Program-made: the position numbers and the translations under genes
From: a virus
Lineage: Duplodnaviria; Heunggongvirae; Uroviricota; Caudoviricetes
Reading direction: 5' to 3' (one strand)
IMG/VR virus record: IMGVR_UViG_2606217100_000004
DNA length: 18,323 bases
Part shown: positions 3,110 through 17,085 of the stretch, in pieces
Layout of the letters: each line of letters begins with the position of its first letter
Position numbering within the stretch: position 1 is the first letter of the stretch
Notes under the pieces: generated by a model
Told to the model about the DNA's origin: nothing
The model's database searches: none
What the model saw: only the letters and a program-made list of their open reading frames with translations

Positions 3110-3511
3110 GTGGCAAAAGTTTTTACACAAGAAGAGCGGGAAAAAATTAAAGGGCAGGTGGTGGAACTCGTGCGCCAGAGCGGTCGTGAGACGTTACGGC
3201 AACTGGAAGCTAAAACAGGTGCGACTAGATATCTGATGAGCGTTCTTGCCAGAGAGCTGGTAGCCAGTGGCGATGTATACAACTCCGGCTACGGGTTATT
3301 CCCGTCTGAACAGGCGCGTAAGGACTGGCAAAACGCCCGCAAAAAACTCTCGAGGGCAAAGGTGAAGAAAACAGCTGTGGTTGATCCGGACCTTATCTGG
3401 TCGTTACCTGATGGAGAAATACGTCGCTACGACAGTCGCCTAAACATAATCTGTCGCGAGTGCCGGATGAGTGAAGTTATGCAGCGCATACTGGCATTTT
3501 ATCAGGGATAA
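3110..3511 (+). CDS. Hypothetical prophage protein with a possible HTH
   Basis: 133-aa ORF with a GTG start at 3110 and a strong SD (AAGGGGGAC) upstream. Composition matches the phage backbone, not the AT-rich retron. Confidence 0.5.
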   Translation: MAKVFTQEEREKIKGQVVELVRQSGRETLRQLEAKTGATRYLMSVLARELVASGDVYNSGYGLFPSEQARKDWQNARKKLSRAKVKKTAVVDPDLIWSLPDGEIRRYDSRLNIICRECRMSEVMQRILAFYQG

Positions 3512-3778
3512 TGTTAGGTATTTTAGACGTTACTAGATTAAAAAGCATTAGTTCAGGAGTGAATTGACATTCTCATTTTTCATGGCACAGGGTAGATCTG
3601 GCGTGGTTGTCCGCTTTGTGCCAGAGGCGGACGTTGTTAAAATAGAAAATATCCCAACCTTGTATGAGTCGTGCAATAATTTCGAACTTTATACAAAGCT
3701 TTGGTTGTAAAGGTGTATAACCACAAGTGACATTAATCACATTTGTAAAGGCAAAATGCAACAAACTGAATTAGTTAA

Positions 3779-3806
3779 TTGCGTAAATTTGAAGTTATGT
3801 TAAGGT
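3779..3806 (+). promoter_or_regulatory. Candidate retron promoter (-35 TTGCGT 3779-3784, 16-bp spacer, -10 TAAGGT 3801-3806)
   Basis: The hexamers place a transcription start at about 3813, coinciding with the first base of the a1 inverted repeat. Motif-level evidence only. Confidence 0.3.
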
Positions 3807-3812
3807 GGTGAT

Positions 3813-3945
3813 GGTTTATGGGCAGATTTTGGGTCGCGTTTCGCGATCAGTGAAAAAAATGTCCGATAGGATTGCCTTTCAGGATCTCATGTTCCTCGCA
3901 TTTCTTAAGGTTCTTGTCAAGTTTGCGTAAGAGTGCCCATAAACC
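3813..3945 (+). ncRNA. Candidate retron msr-msd (template for msDNA), bounded by a1/a2 inverted repeats
   Basis: Perfect 12-nt inverted repeat: GGTTTATGGGCA (3813-3824) and TGCCCATAAACC (3934-3945). A G follows a1 at 3825 (candidate branching G), and a2 ends 19 nt before the RT start codon. The 133-nt span is a plausible size for an msr-msd. Exact ends are not determined. Confidence 0.45.
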
Positions 3946-3964
3946 CTTTTAGAGGCGATCTAAA

Positions 3965-5800
3965 GTGAAACGACTACAATCATTAAAAGAAGCAAAAACA
4001 AAACCAGACTTGGCTAAGCTATTAGGAATCAAACCTTCAGCGTTAACATACTGCCTATATGTATTAAAACCTGAAAATCAATACACACAGTTTAAGATAC
4101 CAAAAAAAAATGGCGGCGAACGGATAATAAGTGCACCTAACGGAATATTAAAGACGATACAGTCATCCTTATCAGGACTGCTTCTAGATTGCTTAGACGA
4201 AATAGTTTGCATTAAGTTTCCAGACTCAGAGTTAGCAAGGCAGAAAGCAAAAAACTCAAAAATATTAAAGTTAAAATGTTCCAACTCAGAAATCAAACAA
4301 CCCTCACTGTCTCATGGATTTGAAAGAAAGCGTTCAATTATTACAAATGCAATGATGCATTTGGGGAAAAAATATGTTTTTAATATAGACTTGGATAATT
4401 TTTTCGGCAGTTTTAACTTTGGTAGAGTCCGAGGTTTTTTCATAAAAAATAGAAACTTTGCACTCGATCCGGAAATCGCAACTGTAATTGCTAAAATTGC
4501 GTGCTACAACAATGAACTACCCCAAGGCAGCCCATGCTCCCCAGTAATCACTAATCTAATCATTCACTCGTTAGACATTAAACTGGCAGCGATTGCATCA
4601 AGAAACTCATCCACTTTTACAAGATATGCTGATGATATTACATTCTCTACGAGGAAGGGGGCGTTTCCTTCTGCTATAGCAAAAAATCAAAATGGTAAAT
4701 ATATCGTTAGTAAGAAAATTAGGGGCGAGATAACTCGCTCAGGTTTTATAATTAATGATGGGAAGACAAGAAATCAGTATAAAGACTCGAGGCAAGATGT
4801 AACAGGCTTAGTGGTTAATAAAAAGCCAAACACGAAAAAAGAATATTGGAGGCTTGTGCGTGCGCAATGTGACCATTTATTTAAACATGGTGAGTTCTTA
4901 GAGGTGATTGACGGCAAGGAAATAAAGGGGAATGTTAATAGCCTTGCAGGCAAACTTAACTTCATAGACCAAGTTGACCACTATAATAGATTGCGTCAAG
5001 GCGAAAAATTAAATCCAAAATATCACTTAAAAAAAGATGCCAATAAAAATGGCCATGCCAAAAAAAGGCGTTACTTGCATAGTTCTAGAGAAAAAACGTT
5101 TAGTGAGTTTCTCTTCTATCGTTTATTTTATGGCAATGAATTACCAACAATTCTTACGGAAGGTAAAACTGACAATATTTATCTGAAGGCAGCAATACAT
5201 AAGTTAGCCTCATCATTCCCTAATTTGGCGGTAGCTGAAAGTCCAGGGCTCTCTTATAAGCCACGGACTAAATTTGTTAACTACAATGAGCGGACAAAAT
5301 ATTTACTTGAACTTTATGGTGGCGCTGATTATTTAAAGGATTTTGTTATTCATTATAAACAACACTTTAATCGTTATAAGGCTCCCAAACCATCTAATCC
5401 AGTAATTATACTTGTTGATAATGATAGCGGACCAAAAGATCTGATTAATTACGTTAGTAAAGTTGATAATATTGGTATTTTCCCCACAGGTGTTCCAGAT
5501 ATCCGCGCCTCTGAGTTTGTACATATTTTTTGTAATCTTTATTTAGTGCTTACCCCTCAAGTTAAGGGATATACAGGAACTGATATAGAGCATTTTTTTA
5601 AAGATGCAGATCGACTTAGACCACATAAAGGTAAGTTTTTCAATACAGTCTCTAAGCGTGATCATGATAATGATTTGAGCAAGGAATCTTTCGCAACTCA
5701 TATTGTTCATGCCCACAAGCATGAAATTGATTTTAGTGGATTTACAAGCCTGTTAGAACGGTTAGTAAAAGTCATAAATCACTTTGACACTGTTAAGTAA
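3965..5800 (+). CDS. Retron-type reverse transcriptase fused to a C-terminal TOPRIM-like domain (Retron-Eco2/Ec67-like)
   Basis: 611-aa ORF with a GTG start. RT motifs appear in order: NAMMH (NAxxH), NIDLDNFF, LPQGSPCSP, YADD (nt 4625-4636), VTGLVVN (VTG). The C-terminal part has TEGKTD (E codon 5159-5161) and VDNDSG (DxD), the TOPRIM E...DxD signature. The gene is strongly AT-rich compared with its flanks. Confidence 0.85.
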   Translation: MKRLQSLKEAKTKPDLAKLLGIKPSALTYCLYVLKPENQYTQFKIPKKNGGERIISAPNGILKTIQSSLSGLLLDCLDEIVCIKFPDSELARQKAKNSKILKLKCSNSEIKQPSLSHGFERKRSIITNAMMHLGKKYVFNIDLDNFFGSFNFGRVRGFFIKNRNFALDPEIATVIAKIACYNNELPQGSPCSPVITNLIIHSLDIKLAAIASRNSSTFTRYADDITFSTRKGAFPSAIAKNQNGKYIVSKKIRGEITRSGFIINDGKTRNQYKDSRQDVTGLVVNKKPNTKKEYWRLVRAQCDHLFKHGEFLEVIDGKEIKGNVNSLAGKLNFIDQVDHYNRLRQGEKLNPKYHLKKDANKNGHAKKRRYLHSSREKTFSEFLFYRLFYGNELPTILTEGKTDNIYLKAAIHKLASSFPNLAVAESPGLSYKPRTKFVNYNERTKYLLELYGGADYLKDFVIHYKQHFNRYKAPKPSNPVIILVDNDSGPKDLINYVSKVDNIGIFPTGVPDIRASEFVHIFCNLYLVLTPQVKGYTGTDIEHFFKDADRLRPHKGKFFNTVSKRDHDNDLSKESFATHIVHAHKHEIDFSGFTSLLERLVKVINHFDTVK

Positions 5801-6361
5801 TATTATGATGCGCACTGATTATTCCTTATTCAGCTAAAATTTCTACTGTAGTCCCAACTTCCGTTCCTCGCTCAAAGCGGACTAAAAGGTTAGCTTGTGT
5901 CGGACTTTGCGTATTAAAAGAAGTGCTGGTGGTGACTAGTGGTTGAGCCCCATTTCCACAGAAAAAATCAGAGAAACTATACCCAATAGTTGTATTGAAT
6001 CACTGACGAGACAGCCTCATATTCATCAGGACTGGTGTACGTCCAATACAGGAGGTTGTGGTGCTGGTTCTCAAATGTGCGCTGGCTATTACGGCTGTAA
6101 TGGCGATTTATTGTCTTGCTATTGTTCTTATGGATCGCCTTTCTGACTGATTTCATATTGGCGAGGTAACGGTAGTTAAGTAGAATGGCTGCGGGTGCTT
6201 GAGGCTATCTGCCTCGGGCATGAACACCAAAGGCAGATAGAGAAAAGCCCCAGTTAACATTACGCGTCCTGCAAGACGCTTAACATTAATCTGAGGCCAA
6301 TTTCATGCTAGACACATGTAGGTTAGCCTCTTACGTGCCGGAAGGCAAGGAGAAGCAGGCT

Positions 6362-6517
6362 ATGAAGCAGCAAAAGGCGATGTTAATCGCCCTGATCGTC
6401 ATCTGTTTAACCGTCATAGTGACGGCACTGGTAACGAGGAAAGACCTCTGCGAGGTACGAATCCGAACCGGCCAGACGGAGGTCGCTGTCTTCACAGCTT
6501 ACGAACCTGAGGAGTAA
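6362..6517 (+). CDS. hokD: Hok-family membrane toxin (HokD/RelF-like); in-frame upstream extension from 6305
   Basis: MKQQKAMLIALIVICLTVIVTALVTRKDLCEVRIRTGQTEVAVFTAYEPEE: a 51-aa single-TM Hok peptide with an AGGAGA SD upstream. A 3' fold-back hairpin and a terminator follow. Confidence 0.85.
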   Translation: MKQQKAMLIALIVICLTVIVTALVTRKDLCEVRIRTGQTEVAVFTAYEPEE

Positions 6518-10481: not shown

Positions 10482-10703
10482 GGTAATATTAAATCGGAAC
10501 ATTTACATCGCGGAATGTAAAATTTAAATAAAAAGGACTCTTCCATGAGCCAAAATTCCTGAAATCTTAAGGGTAAGATAAAAGGTCTTAATCAGAATGA
10601 CACGTTTTATTAATAAATAAAGCTATTCTTTCATTGCTGTGTTTTTCTTTACAAAAGTAATCCTTGCTATGGGTGGTTAATCATGCGTTAATGGTGTTCT
10701 GGT

Positions 10704-10740
10704 TTGTTACAAATTTATCTGAAGCAGTCATTGTTATAAT
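10704..10740 (+). promoter_or_regulatory. Candidate cspI promoter with extended -10 (TGtTATAAT at 10732-10740) and a roughly 100-nt AT-rich leader
   Basis: TGnTATAAT motif seen directly. A long AT-rich 5' UTR is typical of CspA-family cold-shock genes. Confidence 0.3.
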
Positions 10741-10843
10741 TTTATTATTTGTACCTCTTGAGATTTCCTTGTTGGTTTTTCTCTCTGATATTTTTTTTCG
10801 GACCATTCTGCCCAAGGGCTAATTTCTTCAAAAGGTAATAATT

Positions 10844-11056
10844 ATGTCTAACAAAATGACTGGTTTAGTGAAATGGTTTAACCCTGAAAAAGGTTTTGGT
10901 TTCATCACGCCGAAAGATGGCAGCAAAGATGTGTTTGTCCATTTCTCAGCAATTCAGAGCAACGATTTCAAAACATTAACTGAGAATCAGGAAGTTGAAT
11001 TTGGTATTGAGAACGGACCTAAAGGTCCTGCCGCTGTTCATGTAGTGGCGCTTTGA
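10844..11056 (+). CDS. cspI: CspA-family cold-shock protein
   Basis: 70 aa, [23 protein letters not shown]...VHFSAI: RNP1/RNP2 cold-shock domain motifs. Confidence 0.9.
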
Positions 11057-11260
11057 GGTAGACAATATTACAAACCATATTCACTTTAGATGCCCGTGTT
11101 GTCATGGTTCCCAGTATAGAACATCATCTTTTGATGTTTCTGACATGAATCCTTTCGGGGCAAAATGTATCTTTTGTAAATCAATGATGATTACATTTGA
11201 TAATATTTCACAATACTTAAATGCCAGCCGTCTGTCGTTGGATTTAAAAAAGTGAAAATG

Positions 11261-16510: not shown

Positions 16511-17085
16511 TGGCATTCAGAATGAGTGAACAACCACGGACCATAAAAATTTATAATCTGCTGGCCGGAACTAATGAATTTATTGGTGAAGGTGACGCAT
16601 ATATTCCGCCTCATACAGGTCTGCCAGCAAACAGTATCGATATTGCACCGCCAGATATTCCGGCAGGCTTCGTGGCTGTTTTCAACAGTGATGAGGCATC
16701 GTGGCATCTCGTTGAAGATCATCGGGGTAAAACGGTTTATGACGTGGCTTCCGGCGACGCGTTATTTATTTCTGAACTCGGTCCGTTACCGGAAAATGTT
16801 ACCTGGTTATCGCCGGGAGGGGAATATCAGAAGTGGAACGGCACAGCCTGGGTGAAGGATACGGAAGCAGAAAAACTGTTCCGGATCCGGGAGGCGGAAG
16901 AAACAAAAAACAGCCTGATGCAGGTAGCCAGTGAGCATATTGCGCCGCTTCAGGATGCTGCAGATCTGGAAATTGCAACGGAGGAAGAAATCTCGTTGCT
17001 GGAAGCATGGAAAAAGTATCGGGTATTGCTGAACCGTGTTGATACGTCAACTGCACAGGATATTGAATGGCCAGCACTGCCGTAG
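16510..17085 (+). CDS. tfaQ: Tail fibre assembly protein (Tfa)
   Basis: 191 aa; ATG overlaps the stf stop (ATAATGG), and the product resembles Tfa chaperones (…[14 protein letters not shown]…EWPALP). Confidence 0.8.

Follow-up and report, generated by a model that had tools for sequence, protein, structure and literature searches.

We analyzed an 18,323-nucleotide (nt) stretch of DNA from the IMG/VR virus record IMGVR_UViG_2606217100_000004 (Caudoviricetes), hereafter the window, in which an earlier note made from the letters alone had recognized a retron encoding a reverse transcriptase (RT) fused to a TOPRIM domain. It is highly probable that this locus is a complete type I-C1 retron of the Ec67/Eco2 family, carried as AT-rich cargo in a Qin-like Escherichia coli prophage and acting by an Eco2-like mechanism. 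The retron, all of whose features lie on the plus strand, consists of an msr-msd noncoding RNA (ncRNA; 3813-3945) followed by a single gene for an RT-TOPRIM fusion protein (3965-5800). What carries this reading is the family membership of the protein, the conservation of its catalytic residues, the covarying architecture of the ncRNA, and the prophage-cargo context, each of which is established at the locus by the results given below.

RT-TOPRIM Gene and Family Assignment

The RT-TOPRIM gene begins with GTG, encodes 611 amino acids (aa) plus a stop, and is preceded by a Shine-Dalgarno sequence, GAGG, at 3952-3955; relatives carry ATG or GTG at the homologous start position. The Prokaryotic Genome Annotation Pipeline (PGAP) makes the identical open reading frame (ORF) call in complete genomes (WP_032206437), a protein that RefSeq names by family, whose 90% cluster holds 210 member sequences, and for which more than 5000 homologues were returned. 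The retron is a single-gene system: the intervals 3512-3964 and 5801-6300 contain no credible further ORF, and the RT-TOPRIM gene is the sole gene annotated by PGAP between a DUF977 gene and hokD. Small ORFs around the ncRNA were considered as accessory genes and rejected because PGAP has no gene there in E. coli H6 or SW071614.

The retron RT motifs are all present, in the order in which they had been described: NAMMH (residues 128-132), NIDLDNFF (140-147), LPQGSPCSP (185-193), YADD (221-224), and VTG (279-281), within an RT domain that occupies approximately residues 1-345. The TOPRIM domain (approximately residues 390-611) carries the E...DxD signature that the earlier note had read there, as TEGKTD (398-403) and VDNDSG (484-489), both aligned to Eco2 catalytic residues. 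The latter are YADD 199-202 in the RT and E374/D378/D460/D462 in the TOPRIM domain (PMC12916289), and since chain and native numbering agree they map to Y221-D224, E399, D403, D485, and D487 of the window protein. Across 24 aligned homologues with 58-85% identity, none of these positions varies.

The earlier note had proposed profile hidden Markov model (HMM) searches, an alignment to Ec67, and structure prediction as checks, and had placed the protein in the Retron-Eco2 (Ec67) class. Retron RT-TOPRIM family models match the protein over its full length: NCBIfam retron_Ec67_fus (NF038237) exceeds its cutoff of 450 bits with a score of 738.8 bits, with residues 4-607 on profile positions 1-572, and the PADLOC RT-Toprim_I-C models PDLC02966/02963, which are also the best PADLOC models for Ec67 itself, score ~734 bits (E=2.7e-221, residues 1-609). 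The 25 PADLOC matches listed are all retron or retron-like RT models, the next best being those of retron types XI and XII (~315-324 bits), which cover the RT part (approximately residues 83-354). The best PDB sequence matches are Retron Ec67/Eco2 chains 9LM3 and 9I2F (phmmer, E=1.8e-137), Pfam RVT_1 matches with E=6e-16, and BLASTP aligns the protein full length with the Ec67 protein of a related contig (locus L014) at 41% identity over 608 columns, catalytic residues conserved. The class assignment therefore stands, as does the expectation that the locus varies an established class and does not represent a new type of system.

Within type I-C, EGxxD together with DxD are motifs of I-C1 (the Ec67 variant) and I-C3, and I-C2 has DxE (Mestre et al. 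2020). The window protein has E399-G-K-T-D403 as motif IV and D485-N-D487 as motif V; its DxD thus rules out I-C2 and fits I-C1, which is favored over I-C3 on account of the homology between the ncRNA and its Ec67 counterpart and of the best PADLOC models, which are common to both proteins.

In the structure prediction, the top Foldseek matches of the AlphaFold2 (AF2) model are Eco2 cryo-electron microscopy structures, with E-values of ~1e-38 to 1e-33 and full-length alignments. The mean pLDDT (predicted score in the local distance difference test) is 71, with most of the TOPRIM half at ~85-95 and several poor segments in the RT core, and the global template modeling (TM) score to Eco2 is 0.47-0.50 with a large root-mean-square deviation. 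This low global TM score probably stems from modeling without nucleic acid. Because the AF2 model is of limited confidence, we took the domain assignment from sequence homology.

Relative to Ec67, the protein carries a Lys/Ser-rich insertion of 25 aa at approximately residues 85-110 (nt ~4217-4294), conserved across a 611-aa subclade in whose insertion region P86, S88, Q112, and P113 are invariant. AF2 confidence is low over much of it (pLDDT <50 from residue 98). The 611-aa subclade is widespread, occurring in Enterobacterales, Vibrio, Aeromonas, and marine gammaproteobacteria.

The msr-msd RNA

A perfect 12-nt inverted repeat upstream of the gene had been proposed as the msr-msd site; its arms are 3813-3824 (GGTTTATGGGCA) and 3934-3945 (TGCCCATAAACC). 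When the 453-nt intergenic region (3512-3964) was shuffled 1000 times with dinucleotides preserved, 7 shuffles contained a perfect repeat of at least 12 nt, and the repeat taken alone is unusual yet not decisive. Rfam has no family over the ncRNA region at gathering or permissive thresholds, nor any match in 3450-6200, and because it is silent either way we turned to a comparison of related loci. Scanning viral contigs yielded 45 loci encoding relatives with 37-100% identity, including five (L014, L015, L016, L043, and L046) whose proteins are ~99% identical to Ec67; one further locus among the 45 begins at the gene and so falls outside the ncRNA set. In all 44 loci with upstream sequence, Ec67 included, the paired arms (a1 and a2) flank a common core, GCAGATTT...hairpin...AATG...AGAGT, in which the invariant AGAGT stands just before a2, and the sequence 5' of a1 is unrelated between loci.

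From these loci we aligned 27 distinct type I-C ncRNAs, the window and Ec67 (L014) among them. The RNAalifold consensus consists of the a1/a2 stem and one msr hairpin, which in the window occupies 3832-3848 (GGTCGCG, 3832-3838, paired with CGCGATC, 3842-3848, around a TTT loop). In the consensus structure 95.4% of cells are paired and 19 of 21 pairs are changed on both sides, in a total of 137 cells; such compensatory changes affect 12 of the 13 pairs of the a1/a2 helix and 6 of the 7 pairs of the msr hairpin. None of 500 shuffles reached the observed values, and slid controls gave 28-43% pairing. The msr hairpin is also predicted by the minimum free energy fold of the single sequence, and the RNA fold z-score is -3.9. 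This comparative evidence identifies the 12-nt inverted repeat as the a1/a2 stem of an msr-msd RNA that covaries and has its homologue in the Ec67 locus. The branching (priming) guanosine is predicted at 3825, directly after a1, in an invariant column within the GCAGATTT context that is homologous to the branching G of the Ec67 msr, G15 (PMC12916289).

The left edge of the interval given in the earlier note, 3779, is not a boundary within the RNA; it coincides with a weak -35-like hexamer, and the RNA element as a whole spans 3813-3945. This hexamer belongs to a weak putative promoter, read by eye, at 3779-3806 (TTGCGT, 3779-3784; 16-nt spacer; TAAGGT, 3801-3806), which ends 6 nt before a1. 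TTGCAA-N16-TAAGTT/TATATT is similarly placed in L005, L008, and L010, amid differing surrounding sequence. Beyond the other end of the retron, a consensus promoter/terminator scan reported no terminator after the RT-TOPRIM gene. An imperfect 24-bp palindrome, ACAAGTGACATTAATCACATTTGT, lies at 3723-3746, within the cassette and ~70 nt 5' of a1; it may be an operator, and ATTAATCAC is found upstream of the ncRNA in L005-L007 as well.

Predicted msDNA

The Eco2 RT halts at G52, the nucleotide after the flipped U51, with termination at G52:dC67 (PMC12916289), and the homologous window position is G3861. We took the msd template to run from this G52-homologous G to two nt before a2. Applied to the Ec67 locus, the rule gives a 67-nt product, which fits the reported G52:dC67 termination and, but for small differences near the 3' end, agrees with the census reverse-transcribed DNA (RT-DNA) of Ec67 (Terminal 1036). 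For Terminal 1016, a member of the same subclade as the window retron, the sequenced RT-DNA ends fit the rule within 1 nt (PMC10849725, supplementary file 3). The RT-DNA of Terminal 1049 extends 6 nt past the 3' end given by the rule (PMC10849725), which leaves an uncertainty of a few nt in our predicted 3' end. In the window, the predicted msd template is 3861-3932, and its reverse complement would be the branched, RNA-linked multicopy single-stranded DNA (msDNA) of ~72 nt (TCTTACGCAAAC...CCTATCGGAC).

The predicted msDNA, like that of Ec67, folds no better than shuffles, and since no stable hairpin stands out beyond the shuffles we make no structural claim for the msd. A near-palindrome, CTTGACAAG, at 3913-3921 (msDNA nt 12-20) is common to the window and its closest relatives, L004, L005, L008, and L010, among which the remainder of the msd varies; inter-strand pairing of the kind seen in the three-way junction of Eco2 is a conceivable role for it.

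Cassette and Prophage Context

The retron sits in a mobile cassette at 3613-5882 that comprises ~200 nt of upstream region, the ncRNA, the RT-TOPRIM gene, and a tail of ~80 nt, with a GC content of 34-39% compared with ~50% in the flanks. Upstream of the cassette are genes for a DicA-like helix-turn-helix repressor, a Cro-like protein, YdaT, and DUF977, and downstream of it are a complete hok/sok locus and genes for Rem, YdfU, the Q antiterminator, and lysozyme. In E. coli H6 and SW071614 this locus is a heavily degraded, Qin-like cryptic lambdoid prophage beside rspAB. The retron is present in 19 of 5426 complete E. coli genomes, in which the cassette is 99.5-100% conserved; six of the carriers have both Qin-like flanks and the other 13 share only 3613-5874. 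One E. coli genome (H20) has only a 38% fragment of the retron. Among 50,697 deposited phage genomes, tblastn found no close relative (best match 36% identity).

E. coli EC7 is one of those sharing the cassette alone: 3613-5882 recurs there at 99.5% identity (L047, 6001-8270) in a different prophage, at whose end, next to paoD, it is accompanied by baseplate, tail-fiber, pinE, and GIY-YIG genes. The retron is thus confirmed as prophage cargo, an AT-rich cassette found in a Qin-like prophage and also in a prophage of another type. Where E. coli strains share these lambdoid flanks (the DUF977 gene to the left and hokD to the right), the place of 3634-5848 is taken by the gene for a 311-aa HEPN-domain protein (L048, 4123-5291), and the cassette edges, 3613-3633 and 5849-5882 (~20-35 nt each), are common to all three contexts. 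In the Qin prophage of K-12, relBE is the immediate upstream neighbor of hokD, and homology to the window does not start before 6348. Because a HEPN gene or relBE fills the slot elsewhere, we regard the retron as exchangeable cargo, and the slot upstream of hokD appears to be a defense/toxin swap site that holds a retron, a HEPN gene, or relBE.

Proposed Mechanism and Alternative Explanations

The msDNA of Eco2 joins three RT-TOPRIM subunits and cages their TOPRIM active sites; it is destroyed by phage endonucleases (DenB- or A1-type), the trigger for tRNA/RNA cleavage (PMC12916289, PMC12405507). By analogy with Eco2, the transcript of the window retron would fold via its a1/a2 stem, and the RT would prime from the 2'-OH of G3825 and copy the msd into the branched msDNA, which while bound would keep the TOPRIM active site (E399/D403/D485/D487) caged and inhibited. 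Upon infection, phage DNA endonucleases would degrade the msDNA, the freed TOPRIM RNase would cut tRNAs (in their acceptor stems) and other RNAs, translation would stop, and phage propagation would be blocked. For the window retron, the synthesis and exact ends of the msDNA, the caging, the trigger, the RNA targets, and the defense phenotype are all things that we infer from this analogy.

Several observations weigh against an Eco2-like retron at this locus. Identity to Ec67 is only 41%, the N-terminal RT region has the 25-aa insertion, and the segment equivalent to Eco2's trimer-contact loop (325-347) has diverged and is modeled at low confidence. RVT_1 is the only Pfam model to match the ORF and no Pfam TOPRIM model does, so that the TOPRIM call rests on Ec67 homology and the retron-specific HMMs. 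The msd is unrelated in sequence to that of Ec67, and the consensus scan reports no sigma-70 promoter upstream of a1. Under heterologous expression, Terminal 991, which has an msr identical to that of the window, gave no detectable RT-DNA, and the RT-DNA of Terminal 1016 was not seen by polyacrylamide gel electrophoresis (PAGE) (PMC10849725). Support for the window locus itself is entirely computational.

Some of these observations would also be expected if the locus were a genuine retron of a distinct 611-aa subclade that assembles, senses, or cuts otherwise than Eco2, an explanation that we consider unlikely. The distance from Ec67, an insertion at ~85-110 that is conserved across 24 subclade members, the divergence and low pLDDT of the trimer-loop equivalent, and an msd that is hypervariable even among retrons sharing an identical msr could all be read in this way, and Eco2 itself answers unidentified triggers in several phage families. 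However, the catalytic residues, the msr core, and the geometry of a1/a2 and the branching G are all conserved with Ec67, and the two proteins match the same PADLOC and NCBIfam models, with no pointer to another effector chemistry. That the 611-aa subclade might form a functionally distinct I-C lineage, with another mode of assembly or directed at another set of phage nucleases, and that msd turnover might reflect an arms race over trigger specificity, is a tentative proposal and a rather doubtful one.

It is more improbable still that the retron is a silent or decaying passenger of a defective prophage, intact in sequence yet unexpressed or making no msDNA in its host, despite a heavily degraded host prophage, a scan that reported no strong promoter, close census relatives that lack PAGE-visible RT-DNA, and the 38% fragment that is all H20 retains. 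A passenger of this kind is hard to reconcile with a full-length ORF that keeps every catalytic residue, with a perfect a1/a2 stem, with 99.5-100% conservation of the cassette in 19 genomes and two different prophage contexts, or with a -35/-10-like arrangement that relatives conserve at an equal distance from a1. An RT of another class (a group II intron maturase, a diversity-generating retroelement RT, or an Abi, defense-associated RT (DRT), or UG enzyme) beside a coincidental inverted repeat can be almost entirely discounted; assignment to another RT class, such as group II intron or diversity-generating retroelement, was among the outcomes that the earlier note had named as speaking against its reading. 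The sub-threshold matches that might suggest it, TIGR04416 (group_II_RT_mat) at 44 bits (cutoff 300) and Drt2 at 32.8 bits (cutoff 390), fall far short of those cutoffs and show no more than the RT fold held in common; the retron-specific models exceed them 15- to 20-fold in score, the protein has the retron motifs NAxxH and VTG, the msr-msd covaries and is homologous to that of Ec67, and no Rfam match or intron RNA lies in 3450-6200. We rejected the group II intron RT/maturase and DRT/UG assignments accordingly, and retain the type I-C1 retron with an Eco2-like mechanism as the preferred explanation.

Comparison with Known Retrons

The closest known system is Retron-Eco2 (Ec67), type I-C1, for which structures 9LM3, 9I2F, 9I2G, and 9S1F are available. 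Both retrons are single-gene RT-TOPRIM systems with the ncRNA immediately upstream, YADD together with the E/D/D/D tetrad, and EGxxD plus DxD; both have the msr core (GCAGATTT, hairpin, AATG), a 12-13 bp a1/a2 stem, and a branching G directly after a1; and both are borne by prophages and have identical best HMMs. Unlike Ec67 (586 aa), the window protein has 611 aa, with the 25-aa insertion after ~85 and another of 4 aa near 365. The trimer-contact loop counterpart is diverged, the msd is unrelated, and the predicted msDNA is ~72 nt instead of 67 nt. The carriers differ as well, that of Ec67 being a P2/186-like retronphage and those of the window retron a Qin-like lambdoid remnant and the baseplate/tail-fiber/pinE prophage.

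Further relatives are found in the retron census (PMC10849725), where Terminal 991, 1000, and 1016 belong to the same subclade as the window retron. The a1 and msr of Terminal 991 are identical to those of the window (GGTTTATGGGCAGATTTTGGGTCGCGTTTCGCGATCAGTGAAAAAA...), whereas the msd regions of all three are entirely different from that of the window, and nowhere in the census supplement did we find the window ncRNA string. Retron types XI (RT-protease) and XII (RT-TIR) belong to the same RT clade 8 and also have C-terminal effector fusions (Mestre 2020), but their match to the window protein is limited to the RT region, and the C-terminal domain here is TOPRIM rather than TIR or protease. 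Type I-B retrons (e.g., Eco8), with an OLD-type ATPase-TOPRIM, likewise have a TOPRIM nuclease effector restrained by msDNA; there, however, a second protein, which contains the ATPase, bears the TOPRIM, which cuts DNA, and the I-C TOPRIM has been placed in a separate lineage (Mestre 2020).

Other Features of the Window

Some 390 nt downstream of the retron, 6193-6517 holds a complete type I toxin-antitoxin locus, hok/sok, recognized by an Rfam sok match of 117 bits and a Hok ORF at 6305-6517. The hokD of K-12 is without the sok and upstream region found here because relBE takes the upstream position, homology starting at 6348. At the left end of the window, part of rspA (MR_MLE domains) occupies 1-764, with the ORF ending at 783, and borders directly on the prophage immunity region. 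SW071614, the nearest complete genome, has 29.3 kb for the 18.3 kb of the window, which it matches at 100% identity in 5 pieces; the segments rspB-int-xis-exo-dicB and cspF-cspB-essD-IS3 appear to be absent from the window. Two further Rfam matches, IS009 (221 bits; 16853-17051), within the tail-fiber-assembly gene region, and the cspA thermoregulator (113 bits; 10698-11083), over the cspI 5' region, are ordinary Qin-prophage features. The segment 15001-15500, with 63% GC, an AT skew of +0.40, and long overlapping ORFs on both strands, corresponds to a truncated tail-fiber pseudogene region in related genomes.

Significance

The class, mechanism, and structure of this type of retron are already known from published work, relatives in the subclade have been tested in the census (PMC10849725), and the window retron opens no new question. 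A search of the full-text literature found no paper mentioning the accession WP_032206437 or the ncRNA or peptide strings of the window retron. The value of the analysis lies mainly in annotation, giving the ncRNA, branching G, predicted msDNA, catalytic residues, and cassette limits of an uncharacterized Ec67-family retron, which could in addition offer retron engineering an alternative scaffold. For the Qin-like prophages, the occurrence of the cassette in two unrelated prophage backbones, together with the use of its slot by relBE or a HEPN gene, provides a clear example of a defense/toxin swap site. For the family, the window retron is a second E. coli I-C1 retron, with 41% identity to Ec67 and a different msd, and would be a useful comparator for the generality of the caging and trigger features of Eco2.

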